From Naegleria gruberi (Eukaryota), in the NCBI GenBank assembly GCA_000004985.1, contig GG738847.1: a stretch of 64,000 nucleotides of DNA; one strand, written 5' to 3'. Position numbers and translations under genes: made by a program. Below the pieces are notes generated by a model, which ran no database searches, was not told the origin of the DNA, and saw nothing but the letters and a program-made list of their open reading frames with translations. Of the stretch, positions 29,216-36,093 are shown one piece after another; the stretch's first letter is position 1; the number at the start of each line of letters is the position of its first letter.

Positions 29216-30864
29216 TTAGAAAAGTGGAATACCAGCTTCAGCATCACTTTCGACACCACATTCATCAGAACCTCTCAAAATCTTAAAGTAACCATTGTCT
29301 CCCCAAGTTGTTGACCAACTGTTCTTAATCTTCCAATATGGAGTACCATTTTCAACACCCCAACCAACCATCAAGACAGCATGATTGACAACTTCAAAGT
29401 GTGGAATCATTTCATCTTCAGAGAGACCTTGAGCCTTCAATTCTTCAGCAGTAACGTGCTTGTAAACACCGTGCTTGTAGTTTCTCAAATCTGGATAAAC
29501 TTCGAACCCAATAGCAAGTGGACCATTTTGATAAATTTCGTGCATCATGGACAATTCGTGAGAGTTACCATAATAACCACCAACAAAGTAATAGTTTGAA
29601 GAATGGAGACGTTGTTGTCTATTGACTGGACATTGATTGCTGCACTTTCCGAGATCGTGTCCTTGATATGGGTCACAACTTTCAACAGTAAGACCATAAT
29701 CCATAGCATATTTACCAACGAGGAATGGGAAACCACCATCACATCCTTGAGAATAAGCAGAACAATCAACAATGTCTTGTGGTGAGTAAACTGGGACTTG
29801 AGTAAGGTTGGAAGGAATTCTAACTCTACTGCCAAACATGTCACTTGAACTGAAAGCGTAGCAAGATCCGCATTGCTTTTTCCATATTTGGTAATTCAAT
29901 TAAATAAATGTCCATATTTGAATAAATAAATAAAAAATAAATAAAAAAAATAAATAAAAAATAATTAAAAAAAACATACCTCTTGATTTCTGACTGGGAC
30001 AACAAAGTCACGTCCATTAACATTAGTCCAATCGAATTCAGTTGGGAGAGAAGCTCTCAACTTTTCAGCATCTTGAGATTCGAATTGACCAGTCTTACCA
30101 TTGAAAAGGGTAACCTTATCAGCATTCATAGCTCTGAGCTTGGCTTGTTGCTTCTTCAAGTTTCTAGTCTTTTGATAACTTCTTCTGTATGAACCAGTAA
30201 TTCTCTTCAATTCAGCAAAGGTCATACCTTCGAATTGCTTGTGAGCAGTAGCCTTCCATGTGGATTGAGCCTTATTCAATGCTTGAATATATCTGTCATT
30301 GTTAACAAAGACGGTGGAGTGTTCAAAATCTCTCTTAATCTTTTCTTCAGCATGGTCAATGGAGTGAACAGTCTTAGCTTGGAAGCTTGATGACTTGAAT
30401 CCCTTGAAACAACCCCACTTCTTAGCTGGAATAGAGTTATCGTGATAAGTACCAACAAAGGTTTGGTCACAGTGAGAAGTAACAATGGTGTGATTGTTAA
30501 CATTAGCTTCAGTATAGTTGAAGAATGCAAAGTACTTCAATCCGTCAACTTTAATTTCCATACCTTGGTCATAAACCATAGTGAAATGACCACGGACAGT
30601 TGGTTTACCCATCAAGATGGCAATATTTGGTTCAGAGAGTTTAATAGTAACAGTGTCGAGCTTGGTTGTTGGCAATTGCTTCTTATCAATAGAACATTGA
30701 TTATAAATAACTTGGTTATCATAGTTTGGTTCGGTCTTGTAGAAAGTCCAGGTACCGTAAACATTTTCATACAAGCAGTGGACTGGAATGTCGGCCAAGG
30801 CTAATTGGCAAGCAACACCCAAGAAGAAAACTGCTGCGAGAATCTTGGCGAATTGTGATTTCAT
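29216..30864 (-). CDS. CTSC: Cathepsin C / dipeptidyl-peptidase I (papain-family C1). Two exons: 30864..29980 and 29875..29216, about 514 aa.
   Basis: There is a signal peptide plus an N-terminal exclusion domain (..DIPVHCLYENVYGTWTFY..). The pro-region is followed by RNQE|QCGSCYAFSSSD. The CGSCY(S/A)F active-site Cys motif is the cathepsin C variant. Catalytic His (NHAVLMVGWG) and Asn (IKNSWSTTWGDNGYF) are present. The 104-nt AT-rich intron has a GTATGT donor and AAAAG acceptor, in phase 0. Confidence 0.75.
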
Positions 30865-31155: not shown

Positions 31156-33636
31156 CTATTCTGTGAGGAATGGAAGAACCTTATCAATTTTTTGTCTACA
31201 CTCGGTCAGTAAATTGTGAATGGCTTCTGTGTGGAGGTAATTCTTTCGTGTGAATAGATTGAAACAATTATCAATTTGGTTCTTTCTCATGTACATGAGT
31301 GGGAAGGTTCGGGAGAGTGGTGAGTATTCTTTAACCAAGTCTGGATACACTTTGTTAATATCCTCTTCTTTCAATGTTCCATTCTCAATTTGTTGTTGAA
31401 CTACTTGTTGAATTTTTGCGTGGACAACATTCATTAAATTGCATGTAATCTTGTACAGGTTTCTATACTCGACGTAGAGATTGAAAAATTCTGGAACGTA
31501 ATGTTTCACCAATTTGAGATCAGTGGTCATTTCAGAAAGTGTAGACAAGTCGCCTCCACTATTTACAAGTTCTTGAACACTTTCAGAGAGGAAGGATTTC
31601 AAATTTCTAACCATTTCAATCATGTACATTTGATTATTTTCAGAGTCTACACTAGTTTCTTGAGTTTCTGAATCTCTGAAAAGTTCCAAATACGACATGC
31701 TATAATAAATACCAGTTTCAATCTTGACTCTTACAAAATCTTGATCACACAAAATAAATCCAGAATATCTTTCCGGATCCATTGTAGAAAAGTCATTGGC
31801 TAGCTCCATATATTTTTCAAAAACTTTAAATAATGGCAAGTTGACACAAATATCATCTGGTTTCTTTCTCCACATGTTTGCATTGAGAGGTCTCTTTTTT
31901 GGTTTGTATTTGGTCTGTTCTACAATATCAAAGTAAGGACCTTTTGGTATAATTTCAATAATTTCTGGATGTTTCCAATTGTATCTTTCTGCGTGTGGTT
32001 GAATGGATTCTTCCTTGAGTGTTTTCATATCTCTGCAACCATGAGCTATGAGCTCTCGAGAAGAGAAATTACTAGATGAATCTCCTTCACTTAAGAATGG
32101 AACAGAGGAAAGTGTGAACATGAAACATTTGGTGGTATCTTCTGGGAGTAAATATCCACCCTCTTCAAATACTTTCCAAAAATCTGTTTGTGTATCATTC
32201 TTATTCATAGTGGACGGATCACTTCTTCCATATAAATATTCCCAATCTTGAGATTGATTTGTACTAATTCTCCACTCATTGTCATGATAAAAGAGCATAC
32301 ACATGGTGCCAACATATTTCATTGTGACTTGAATGGATTGATTCTCTACAGGTTTGCTATTTGTTTTTAAAAGAATATTGTCACACGCATCAGAATCATA
32401 TTGGAAAAAGTACTTGTATGGATGGGCCACAAGTTTCATATTAGCCCTGTCTAGAGTATTGGTCCAATCGGATGGTGGATGCATTTCAACAATAGAGCCA
32501 TTCCAACATTCCTGAAGAGGAATTAAATCGTCCAATCTTTTGTGAACTTCTCTGTGAGTAATCATCTTGACCAACTTGGTTGAAATGAAAGATTCCTTCT
32601 TGATGAGGTCAATTATTGATTGGTCTTGAGGAATATGATAGGTTCCCTCAATGAGGGATATGGCCGTTGGCGAGGATTGCTGTTCTCCCAAAATGACTTG
32701 CTTTTCTTGTTGTTCTTTTTTAGATTCAAAGAGAGGTGAAACTACAATTGAAAAGTCTCGTGCTAACTCTGTAACTCCGTACCGTTTACAATATTCTAAA
32801 AAGGCAGTGGAGGGTATGGATTTCTCAATAATTTCATTCATAATTTCATTGGAGAATGTTTGTGAACTTTTGAATATTTCATAACATGCATCATTCAATT
32901 TAGATTTGAACAACTTATGTATTGGTCTAAACATTTCTTCATATTCTCTCCACAAGTTGAATTCTTTTGTCTTTTCAAAGAATAATTGGTGAAACTTTTT
33001 TGCATTTCTATACTTTACAATCTTCTTGTCCTTTGTGATGTGAATGGCATATTTCAAATAACGTATAGAATGGAGAAGGTTTTTCCTAGATCTCTTCAAA
33101 TCTCCATCATTGAATGATCTCTTAGCTGTAATCTTACACCACAAAGTGAGACCTCTCTGAATTTGTCTCAATCTAATATTCAATAGGGCCATCCAATACG
33201 TTCTAATCCATCTCATTAAATTTGATTCAAACCAAACAAATTGACCTCCATTTTCAAGCCACAATGGTAGAATGGATTTGTAATTGTGTTGCTCAATGAA
33301 AACATCCATCAGAAAATGTGAAACATCCATCACTACACAATCCATCTGATTCTCTCCACAACTCAACTCTAAAGTCATTCGAGAATCGGAAGGAAGTCTA
33401 TTATTCCTATTGATTCCCTCTCGTTCATCAGCCTTTCTATTGGTAATAATAATGAAATCATAATCACTTTTTGTTTGATCCGATTCACTAATATATGTAT
33501 TTTCAATTCCATACAAACGAGAGCCGAACAAATAGATGGCCTCTATATGAAAATTATCTCCTCCATTATATTCTATCAGAGTTTGCACTAGTGATTGTAC
33601 ATTCAACTCAAAAGAGGAGGAAGAAGATTGCGACAT
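31156..33636 (-). CDS. Polymerase-beta-superfamily nucleotidyltransferase-fold protein, 826 aa, family unresolved.
   Basis: The N-terminus has hG[GS]..D.D: IYLFGSRLYGIENTYISESDQTKSDYDFIIITN, followed by a helical region. The central and C-terminal two-thirds are not recognised; they contain MKYVGTMCMLFYHDNEWRIS. Single exon, ATG at 33636. Confidence 0.5.
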   Translation of the reverse strand: MSQSSSSSFELNVQSLVQTLIEYNGGDNFHIEAIYLFGSRLYGIENTYISESDQTKSDYDFIIITNRKADEREGINRNNRLPSDSRMTLELSCGENQMDCVVMDVSHFLMDVFIEQHNYKSILPLWLENGGQFVWFESNLMRWIRTYWMALLNIRLRQIQRGLTLWCKITAKRSFNDGDLKRSRKNLLHSIRYLKYAIHITKDKKIVKYRNAKKFHQLFFEKTKEFNLWREYEEMFRPIHKLFKSKLNDACYEIFKSSQTFSNEIMNEIIEKSIPSTAFLEYCKRYGVTELARDFSIVVSPLFESKKEQQEKQVILGEQQSSPTAISLIEGTYHIPQDQSIIDLIKKESFISTKLVKMITHREVHKRLDDLIPLQECWNGSIVEMHPPSDWTNTLDRANMKLVAHPYKYFFQYDSDACDNILLKTNSKPVENQSIQVTMKYVGTMCMLFYHDNEWRISTNQSQDWEYLYGRSDPSTMNKNDTQTDFWKVFEEGGYLLPEDTTKCFMFTLSSVPFLSEGDSSSNFSSRELIAHGCRDMKTLKEESIQPHAERYNWKHPEIIEIIPKGPYFDIVEQTKYKPKKRPLNANMWRKKPDDICVNLPLFKVFEKYMELANDFSTMDPERYSGFILCDQDFVRVKIETGIYYSMSYLELFRDSETQETSVDSENNQMYMIEMVRNLKSFLSESVQELVNSGGDLSTLSEMTTDLKLVKHYVPEFFNLYVEYRNLYKITCNLMNVVHAKIQQVVQQQIENGTLKEEDINKVYPDLVKEYSPLSRTFPLMYMRKNQIDNCFNLFTRKNYLHTEAIHNLLTECRQKIDKVLPFLTE

Positions 33637-34015: not shown

Positions 34016-35699
34016 TCACGTATCATCAAAATAAACTTTGTAAAATGTTAGCAAACTCACATGGGTCACAAAATTTTCCTTTGAAACATTTCGTGAAAAG
34101 TGAAATCCAAATCCAGAAGCAGTATTTTTCATATGAAAGGAAAGGTTTGGTTTGCCAATCACATTCTTTGGATTTATCGTCGATGGTATTTGGATAAATA
34201 TTGAGCACTTGAGTTGTCTATCGTTTGGAACGCGTTCAATAATATTCCACTGTAAATTATCTGATTCCCTTTCTAATTTTCCAATGGTTTTCATTCCCTT
34301 CTTAATTCCTACAATATTTGTTAAAGGATTCAATAGTGGAATCTTGACATTGAGGTTGAATACTTTTTCTGATCTTTTAACACCAATTCCCATTAATATT
34401 TTGATAATTGAATATTCTACTGTTTGATTAACAACTCTGATATTAAAAAATAATTCTATGGGATTGATATCACGTTGTTTAAATGATCTAATGGTGTATG
34501 TTACGGATTCATTACGTATGTATGGTTCTGGCCAAATTGGAAACTTGTAGGTAGGAATTTTATACCTAGAAGGAGATATTTTGAAATTAGTTTCATTTCG
34601 TTTCACATAATTTCCATTCAATCCTTCTGTTCCTTCATGAATCTCAATAAAATTATTGAATTTCTCATTTAGAGATATCAAAATTTCCATTTTGGCAGAA
34701 CCTGAACAATCTGAGCTAAACGAGAAAGTACCTTCTAGTGTACAATTATTAAGATTCTTCACTATTGCTACTCTTTCTATAATATCGAGATGTAGATATG
34801 TAAATCTATGTTCTCTGATATGCCATAATAACGTTTGGGTGGATTTGGGTATATTTAACTCTTGAATTGGCTTTTCTCTCTTCAAAATAGAACTATCAAA
34901 AGGGTCAATCAAAAATTCTAGCATTTCACATGATTTTGATTCCTCTGACAGGTGTTTAAATTTTCTATGAATCAATTTTAGAGTTTCAAAAACCAAAAAG
35001 GTATTCACATTTCTTACACTTCTACAAAATATAACATCTGCATTAATTAGATGTTGGATTTACAAATAAATGCAACTTACAAGTAAGATTCCTCTTTTTC
35101 AACACAAAATAATTGAATTCTCCTTTTTGAAATATTGGTTTGAATTCGTAGAGAATCATTTCTTTACAAATTATATCCTTAATGGTTTCGACCAAATTAA
35201 AAGTTCTAAATGCCATTTCCAATTGTTTACAATCTTCCCACAAGTGAAAGAATTCAATTTCCACTTTTTTACCAATAATCACCAATCCAGAATATCCAAG
35301 AAAATCTGATGAAGAATCATGATGAGCTAATAATTGATTTATATTTTCCAAATCCTTTTGTGTATCATTATTAAATTTTGGCATTCTCTCAGCATGATTA
35401 GATATATTAGCAAATTGTTTGGAAACCAATTTTAATATTGGATCAATCAATTGATCATTAGAATGTTTCCTCCGCTGATAAATATTATTCAAATAAAACA
35501 TTACAAAGTGTTCCGAATTGATTACTGTGTACCAACTCTTACACACAAGGTATGGTTTGCAAATTTTCCAATCTGTTGCATGATTAGTGAACTGTAACAC
35601 GGTGGCAATCAAGAAATGATCCATTTTTTGATAATTGAATTCAGTTTTAAATAAGCTCATTCTTATAAATTTGTTTAACAATCTCCGAATTGTATACAT
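34016..35699 (-). CDS. Hypothetical protein, about 550 aa, two exons (~35699..35062, 35018..34016). The 5' end is uncertain.
   Basis: The two minus ORFs (35043..35702 and 34016..35008) join in frame through a 43-nt intron (gtaagttgcatttatttgtaaatccaacatctaattaatgcag). The joined peptide reads ..VLKKRNLT|YVIFCRSVRNVNTFLVFETLKL... The track 'M' codons are GTG/TTG; the first real ATG (MYTIRRLL) is at 35699. The open frame continues about 30 codons further upstream. No recognised domain. Confidence 0.45.
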
Positions 35700-36093
35700 C
35701 AATGGATGATGAATTAAATTCCTTCCAGAGTTGTTGTGTTCTTCAACATATTTTTTATCAAAGATTTGAAACTAGTTTTTTGATAAGAGGGAATTCTGTT
35801 CAATTAGAAAACAACCAAAAGATTCTAATTTAAAAAAAGGCCACATACCAAATCAACGCTTACCATCACCATAACAACAAAATAGATTCATGGAGGTTAC
35901 TTCCTCATAGGCTCCGATCATCACGTTAAAAGTAGTTTGAAACACGATTGGTCATTCATATTATTTAAAAAAACATCACCAAACGTGATCGTGAAAACAT
36001 CAAAAAGAATCGGAAGTGGTCATATTGAACAACATCTCTCTGATATTTCGATTACTGAAGTAATATTATTATTATTTAAAAAGAATAGAAAGA

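Follow-up and report, generated by a model that had tools for sequence, protein, structure and literature searches.

What is a protein of 826 amino acids likely to do if its N-terminus carries a Pol-beta-type nucleotidyltransferase (NTase) motif and the rest of it resembles nothing that can be recognized by eye? The question is raised by a gene in a 64,000-nucleotide stretch of Naegleria gruberi contig GG738847.1 (assembly GCA_000004985.1), hereafter the window, in which an uninterrupted open reading frame (ORF) with an ATG start occupies positions 31156-33636 of the minus strand. The ORF listing of the window and a comparison with deposited proteins (100% identity, 100% coverage) mark it as the complete, single-exon coding sequence, 826 codons plus stop, of NAEGRDRAFT_78112 (EFC49833.1, XP_002682577.1, UniProt D2V132), a protein whose only annotation is "hypothetical" and of which no mention was found in the literature searched. 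The original prediction, made from the letters of the DNA, placed ~700 amino acids of the protein in no family and proposed a candidate novel NTase architecture, related to terminal uridylyltransferases (TUTases), to cGAS/Mab21 or to something else. The analysis described here points to another answer, namely that the protein is probably an RlaP-like enzyme adding nucleotides to 3′ ends, fused to a complete, mostly dead RNA ligase 1 (Rnl1)-type pseudo-ligase that binds or targets RNA for the NTase. Neither a new fold nor a new chemistry is present.

Searches with the single 826-amino-acid sequence in Pfam, NCBIfam, the PDB (phmmer), PHROGs and PADLOC returned nothing meaningful beyond a match of Polbeta (PF18765) to residues 28-75 (E 2.9e-4), which lies under Pfam's own threshold; matches to Cgi121 structures in the PDB (E 0.45) and to a sigma-factor family in NCBIfam (E 0.099) were set aside as noise. 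To that extent the claim that most of the protein belongs to no family stands, and it falls with profile and structure searches, which bring out RlaP and the Rnl1 fold. A word-indexed search retrieved three other proteins only, from N. lovaniensis (51% identity), from a cluster that includes N. fowleri (49% identity; N. fowleri members FDP41_008033 and CAG4710306) and from Willaertia magna (39% identity). When a profile of the four orthologs was scored against 1.84 billion representatives, 540 proteins were matched at E≤1e-3 and 120 at E≤1e-10, and the local domain table separated two classes of hit. One class consists of about 100 proteins, typically of ~360 amino acids, that match profile positions ~410-660 only; these short stand-alone proteins belong to RNA_lig_T4_1 (PF09511), above its threshold, at E 1e-17 to 1e-20. 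The other consists of about 45 proteins of 500-950 amino acids whose matches take in the N-terminal region as well as positions 410-660, and these therefore have the same architecture as the query.

Both domain assignments come from a 47-sequence alignment of proteins sharing this architecture, referred to below as A2. The consensus of its C-terminal half matched PF09511 over all 227 positions with 78.2 bits (E 1e-21; Pfam gathering threshold 28.3 bits), and that of its N-terminal half matched RlaP (PF10127) with 43.3 bits (E 4.6e-11; gathering threshold 23 bits) over positions 18-222 of the 249 in the hidden Markov model, so both the NTase core and the subsequent helical domain are covered. 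Polbeta and NTP_transf_2 matched the core alone in the same consensus. Against the PDB, the A2 profile found T4 RNA ligase 1 (2c5u, 9do4 and 5tt6) at E ~1e-12, covering T4 residues 50-305, and MNT-type NTases at E 9e-5. Alignment of A2 by hhalign with phage T4 NrdC.11, which is itself a PF10127 protein in Pfam (E 4.6e-12), gave a probability of 94% (E 9.5e-8) over 83 columns, including the helix past the third carboxylate. AlphaFold2 produced a confident model from A2 (predicted local distance difference test, pLDDT, 86.7; predicted template modeling score, pTM, 0.88) and an unusable one from the four orthologs (pLDDT 44.5), and Foldseek matched the A2-based model to T4 Rnl1 at E 4e-7. With a consensus above the Pfam thresholds of two known families and T4 Rnl1 recovered at this significance, which amounts to the confident family assignment that the original prediction had named as its own refutation, the proposal of a novel NTase architecture is not supported.

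Individual sequences give a sparser picture. The query has no match to PF10127 even at E≤10, and 3 of the 47 relatives match it at E≤0.01, P0147 among the relatives scoring 28.2 bits; PF09511 likewise has no match in the query and is matched by 8 of the 47 at E≤0.01. A protein search with the 47-sequence alignment recovered only the four known proteins, and the four-orthologue profile found nothing in the PDB.

The N-terminal module comprises residues 1-272. Its Pol-beta superfamily NTase core, residues 1-135 (33232-33636; this and all features of the protein given below are on the minus strand), is delimited by the Polbeta match, the hhalign comparison and the model, and has strands at residues 31-37, 59-65, 86-93 and 96-104, after which comes the RlaP-typical FLMDVFIEQHNYKSILPLWL helix. 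Residues 37-64 read FGSRLYGIENTYISESDQTKSDYDFIII, the FGSRLYG...SDYDFIII motif on which the original prediction was built. Within them lies the signature G38-S39 ... D58-x-D60 (33457-33525; translation GSRLYGIENTYISESDQTKSDYD), in which G38, S39, D58 and D60 are invariant in all relatives having that region. The third carboxylate in the translation, D99 (33340-33342), is aligned by hhalign with the Asp of the 'IDH' of T4 NrdC.11; among the 47 relatives this position is Asp or Glu in 26 and Asn in 14. The ORF and its GS...DxD motif are thus real and the Pol-beta assignment was right, with the three carboxylates D58, D60 and D99 all present. The helical domain of the module, residues 136-272 (32821-33231), carries the most conserved basic residues of the family, the conserved positions being K172, R173, K185 (invariant), N186, H189 and R192 (nearly invariant), and its helices from 139 to 272 have pLDDT >90 in the AlphaFold2 model.

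The RlaP family was reportedly defined by Burroughs and Aravind in 2016. Bacterial RlaP is built of an NTase and a helical domain that form a basic cleft, takes its name from operon linkage with RNA ligases and, in Pseudomonas, adds one or two nucleoside monophosphates to the 3′-OH of RNA, favoring damaged RNA (PMC12776372); it was predicted to replace nucleotides taken off by ribotoxins, ahead of ligation (PMC7824862). Like PfRlaP and PaRlaP of Pseudomonas and NrdC.11 of T4, all of PF10127, the query combines a Pol-beta core (an hG[GS] motif, here G38-S39, and three Asp, here D58, D60 and D99) with a following helical domain bearing conserved basic residues, which would make the predicted basic cleft with the core, and it is physically linked to an RNA ligase, here by in-frame fusion to an Rnl1-type module. 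Judged by its residues, the NTase module is therefore best described as a predicted RlaP-like enzyme with a complete catalytic set (G38, S39, D58, D60 and D99). It differs from RlaP in sharing one polypeptide with the ligase, where RlaP is an operon neighbor, in being eukaryotic and nuclear-encoded, in having a catalytically degenerate partner and in falling, as a single sequence, below the PF10127 threshold. Neither a poly(A) polymerase (PAP)-associated domain nor an OAS/Mab21 lobe was found after the NTase core, in agreement with the original prediction, which had seen no PAP-associated domain and no OAS- or cGAS-like lobe; in the absence of the required domain after the core, membership among non-canonical poly(A) polymerases and TUTases (Cid1/PAP), cGAS or OAS was rejected.

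The remainder of the protein, residues ~278-826, is a module of the Rnl1 type. Aligned by MAFFT with T4 Rnl1 and the stand-alone ligases, the query is collinear with them from residue ~278 to the C-terminus, helical C-domain included, and the alignment reaches the C-terminus of T4 Rnl1. The N-terminal subdomain, defined by this alignment, covers residues 278-430 (32347-32805; FLEYCKRYG..., E376-C-W-N379-G and Y407-K-Y409-F-F) and has a weakly conserved insert at ~304-350. It is followed by a ligase-type (covalent nucleotidyltransferase) core with degenerate motifs, residues 431-650 (31687-32346), and by an all-helical C-terminal domain, residues 651-826 (31159-31686), which alignment and model show to be collinear with the C-domain of T4 Rnl1 and the stand-alone ligases and whose helices have pLDDT of 88-98. 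Both the fold of Rnl1 and its order of domains, from the N-subdomain through the adenylyltransferase core to the helical C-domain, are present. The core reads K440-Y-V-G443 at motif I, F-M-F-T508 at motif III, L-I-A-H-G-C-R-D at motif IIIa, S625-G626-F at motif IV and K638-I-E640 at motif V. The earlier remark that the protein lacks a KxDG motif is literally accurate, and the exclusion of a ligase on that ground was mistaken, since a ligase fold with a degenerate motif I is present.

The ligase columns were validated on T4 Rnl1, for which they return R54-K75-K99-D101-G102-E159-E227-G228-K240-K242; the query has N379-Y409-K440-V442-G443-T508-S625-G626-K638-E640 at the same ten positions. Six catalytic positions are replaced, the equivalents of T4 R54, K75, D101, E159, E227 and K242, and K440 (equivalent to the adenylylated lysine), G443, G626 and K638 are kept. 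Set against T4 Rnl1 and the ligase domain of fungal and plant Trl1 (PF09511), the query has KYVG where they have KxDG, Thr for the motif III Glu (T508), Ser for the motif IV Glu (S625) and Glu for the second Lys of the motif V K-x-K (K638-x-E640), and compared with T4 Rnl1 it has Asn for R54 (N379) and Tyr for K75 (Y409). The motif I Asp is Val or Leu in the orthologs, in which K440 and G443 are invariant, and the nearest relatives outside the ortholog group (P0008-P0016) have lost the motif I lysine too, which is replaced by L, C, N, M, R and N. The full canonical set is found in 81 of 88 stand-alone hits compared with 5 of 39 fusions. In T4 Rnl1, K99 is the acceptor of adenosine monophosphate, and mutation of E159 or E227 removes most of the activity (PMC6035275). 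With six catalytic equivalents lost, ligation and self-adenylylation are most likely gone, and the Rnl1-like module of the query would be unable to seal RNA. Its core is nonetheless conserved like the NTase core, with 30-36% of columns invariant among the four orthologs compared with 30%, and has therefore probably been kept for something other than classical ligation.

Two clade-specific inserts further separate this module from T4 Rnl1 and Trl1. A Lys/Arg-rich loop, KYKPKKRPLNANMWRKKP, identified from the translation, alignment and model, occupies residues 563-603 (31828-31950) between ligase motifs IIIa and IV and is seen only in the Naegleria/Willaertia clade and in P0005; residues 586-597 have pLDDT <50 and are predicted to be disordered. 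The loop could be a bipartite nuclear localization signal (NLS) or, equally, a loop that contacts RNA. Just past motif V lies an acidic block, DSETQETSVDSENN, residues 655-668 (31633-31674), identified from the translation and from per-domain conservation. No other part of the protein is as well conserved (columns 651-670 are 70% invariant across the four orthologs vs 24-38% in other domains). The block is absent from T4 Rnl1 and the stand-alone ligases and contains CK2-like S-x-x-E/D sites.

What the analysis shows is which domains are present, the state of their residues, how well they are conserved and that the architecture recurs elsewhere; the function proposed above can be spelled out from this in conditional terms. 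The NTase core and helical domain would together form a basic cleft, and the RlaP-like NTase, by analogy with the characterized bacterial enzymes, would add one or a few nucleotides to an RNA 3′-OH. The Rnl1-like module may serve as a binder of RNA ends or tRNA, giving the NTase specificity without sealing; this role is suggested because the core of T4 Rnl1 recognizes 5′-phosphate ends and its C-domain confers tRNA specificity. The basic loop and the acidic block may refine it.

Several observations weigh against this proposal. The query sequence itself passes no Pfam threshold, either for RlaP or for RNA_lig_T4_1, and hhalign of the four-ortholog profile with T4 NrdC.11 and with T4 Rnl1 was negative, so both assignments rest on intermediate sequences and on a predicted structure. 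The RNA substrate is argued from bacterial RlaP alone, which has little sequence identity to the query. Furthermore, the orthologs without exception keep K440, G443, G626 and K638, and with them a residual or altered nucleotidyl-transfer chemistry may have been kept. A stronger version of this last point is a bifunctional repair enzyme in which the NTase refills 3′ nucleotides and the ligase is still active through a non-canonical site around K440 and K638. The invariance of the motif I Lys and Gly, the motif IV Gly and one motif V Lys in the four orthologs, the purifying selection on the ligase-like domain and the existence of sister fusions with canonical residues all fit such an enzyme, yet six catalytic positions have been replaced together, T4 Rnl1 loses most of its activity when E159 or E227 is substituted (PMC6035275), and the closest outside relatives (P0008-P0016) lack the motif I lysine, which indicates relaxed constraint on catalysis across the clade. 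We consider a bifunctional enzyme unlikely. Slightly less credit is given to an NTase that, in the manner of MNT antitoxins and aminoglycoside nucleotidyltransferases, transfers nucleotides to a protein or small molecule, with the ligase-like part as a scaffold only. Matches to such enzymes are limited to the generic NTase core, whereas no model other than that of RlaP extends over the core and the helical domain alike, and the covalent fusion with an RNA ligase module, together with exonuclease-NTase-ligase versions in bacteria, points to an RNA substrate.

Helical domains that follow minimal NTases, such as the C-domain of KNTase, are distantly HEPN-like, and R184-K-N-L-L-H189 in the query clade fits the Rx4-6H pattern, so that the helical domain might be imagined as a HEPN-type RNase (R184-x4-H189) in an enzyme that would cut RNA and also tail or bind it. 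Most relatives, however, have Lys in place of the Arg, and with no conserved Rx4-6H motif a HEPN RNase was rejected as very improbable. An equally slim chance is given to the protein being a decaying, functionless remnant of a repair gene acquired horizontally from a giant virus or a bacterium. Klosneuvirus-type giant viruses and bacteria do contain relatives, and the ligase site is degenerate; against decay stand ORFs that have stayed intact and full-length in N. gruberi, N. lovaniensis, N. fowleri and Willaertia (39-51% identity), the invariant blocks in every domain, and a composition and set of neighbors typical of Naegleria chromosomal DNA. On the strength of the intact orthologous ORFs and intact NTase residues, pseudogene and viral-remnant readings were rejected. 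The reading of an RlaP-like tailing enzyme guided by a pseudo-ligase is thus retained, and NAEGRDRAFT_78112 appears from its residues to be a divergent relative of both the RlaP and Rnl1 families and a catalytic member of RlaP only.

Relatives with an intact ligase exist in bacteria and probably in giant viruses. Eight fusions inspected (P0017, P0058, P0065, P0066, P0075, P0124, P0126 and P0143) have fully canonical ligase residues, and two of these, P0065 and P0124, have an additional N-terminal DEDDh RNase_T exonuclease. P0168 belongs to the P0124 cluster and comes from a contig that looks bacterial; it has a full-length relative of 43% identity in the Polyangiaceae metagenome-assembled genome JAXLYQ010000032. 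P0075 lies on a virus-like contig rich in ORFans, and its ligase region (residues 455-650) has a relative of 36% identity on an IMG/VR viral contig. In a Foldseek comparison with viral models, Yasminevirus A0A5K0U7I7 and Terrestrivirus A0A3G4ZN96 gave full-length matches at E ~1e-17. The bacterial and giant-virus fusions, found by the same profile and by full-length Foldseek matches, are like the query in joining an RlaP-like to an Rnl1-like module; unlike the query, the eight inspected fusions retain every canonical ligase residue, and the viral proteins were compared by fold only. Only a distant fold relative of the protein is the m3G-cap-binding domain of Snurportin-1, which is akin to capping enzymes rather than to Rnl1 and lacks a Pol-beta NTase fusion.

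Several of these relatives are of interest in their own right. The bacterial triple fusions of DEDDh RNase_T, RlaP-like NTase and canonical Rnl1 (L002 8001-10598 and, in the Polyangiaceae genome, L009 3001-5651) would place trimming, refilling and sealing in one polypeptide. P0163, a fusion predicted to be ligase-active, lies on a bacterial metagenome contig (L006 5087-9404) between an upstream RimK-like ATP-grasp gene and a downstream gene of a phosphodiesterase family, with overlapping stop and start codons across all three genes in an apparent operon, and this locus is a possible uncharacterized RNA-repair cassette. The Yasminevirus and Terrestrivirus proteins are named as nucleases (endonuclease V and exonuclease). 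P0147 (618 amino acids) is a tandem pair of NTase modules without a ligase, the second of which accounts for the score above the RlaP threshold (28.2 bits).

In all nuclear amoebal copies that were inspected, the ligase site is degenerate. These copies comprise N. gruberi 74811, 50276 and 68423, Willaertia KAL9647841, and Balamuthia KAL6056841 and KAL6062794. The nearest relatives outside the heteroloboseans, P0005 and P0006, lie on eukaryote-like metagenome contigs. N. gruberi alone has at least four paralogs with the RlaP plus degenerate-Rnl1 architecture, including NAEGRDRAFT_74811, _50276 and _68423. Seven members of the Rnl1 family in N. gruberi were published by Unciuleac and Shuman in 2015 (PMC4408790), and NAEGRDRAFT_78112 is outside those seven; with its paralogs missing from that list, the RNA-repair-like gene set of this organism is larger than had been counted. 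The original prediction had suggested a phylogenetic profile across Amoebozoa, a scope that followed from a wrong guess at the organism, Naegleria being heterolobosean. The N. fowleri ortholog has been deposited at three lengths, 1348 (P0170, FDP41_008033), 896 (P0171) and 912 amino acids (P0003), and the 1348-amino-acid model has probably been merged with a neighboring gene.

The genomic setting of the gene is an ordinary one. GC content is ~34% and even across the window, and the neighboring genes encode a START-domain protein, cathepsin C, ATG2, an RRM protein, a WD40 protein and an EEP phosphatase; with eukaryotic neighbors of this kind and a uniform composition, NAEGRDRAFT_78112 lies in a normal chromosomal context. 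The cathepsin C (dipeptidyl peptidase I) gene lies downstream on the minus strand (29216-30864) as two ORFs, one for the exclusion domain (29965-30864) and one for the papain-family protease (29216-29899), apparently separated by a short intron at ~29900-29964. Upstream are two minus-strand ORFs of 330 (34016-35008) and 219 amino acids (35043-35702), without a Pfam match at E≤0.001, which may be exons of a single uncharacterized gene.

The partnership between RlaP and RNA ligases is already known from bacterial operons and phages, and the present results indicate that bacteria, giant viruses and amoebae also have it in single-polypeptide form. We know of no description of a single polypeptide in which RlaP is joined to an inactivated ligase and which has expanded in amoebae, a statement made with Burroughs and Aravind (2016) outside the comparison. 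The analysis provides a function-level annotation for a hypothetical protein that Naegleria species have conserved, the pathogen N. fowleri among them. It also delineates a clade of at least 30 clusters (50% identity) whose ligase half is conserved and stripped of its catalytic residues, making its members candidates for a new group of pseudo-enzymes that read RNA ends. The biochemistry of RlaP is recent, and a natural eukaryotic fusion with a dead ligase offers a clean system for the study of RlaP-type tailing without sealing. More tentatively, it is possible that Naegleria, Willaertia and Balamuthia domesticated a bacterial or giant-virus RlaP plus Rnl1 fusion and expanded it into paralogs, with the dead ligase acting as an RNA-end reader that steers 3′ tailing. 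If so, the targets would be RNAs that are broken or processed, such as tRNAs cleaved in the anticodon loop, and RNA tailing guided by a pseudo-ligase would be new to eukaryotes, operating perhaps in the nucleus, as the NLS-like loop may suggest, or in conflict between amoebae and their viruses.

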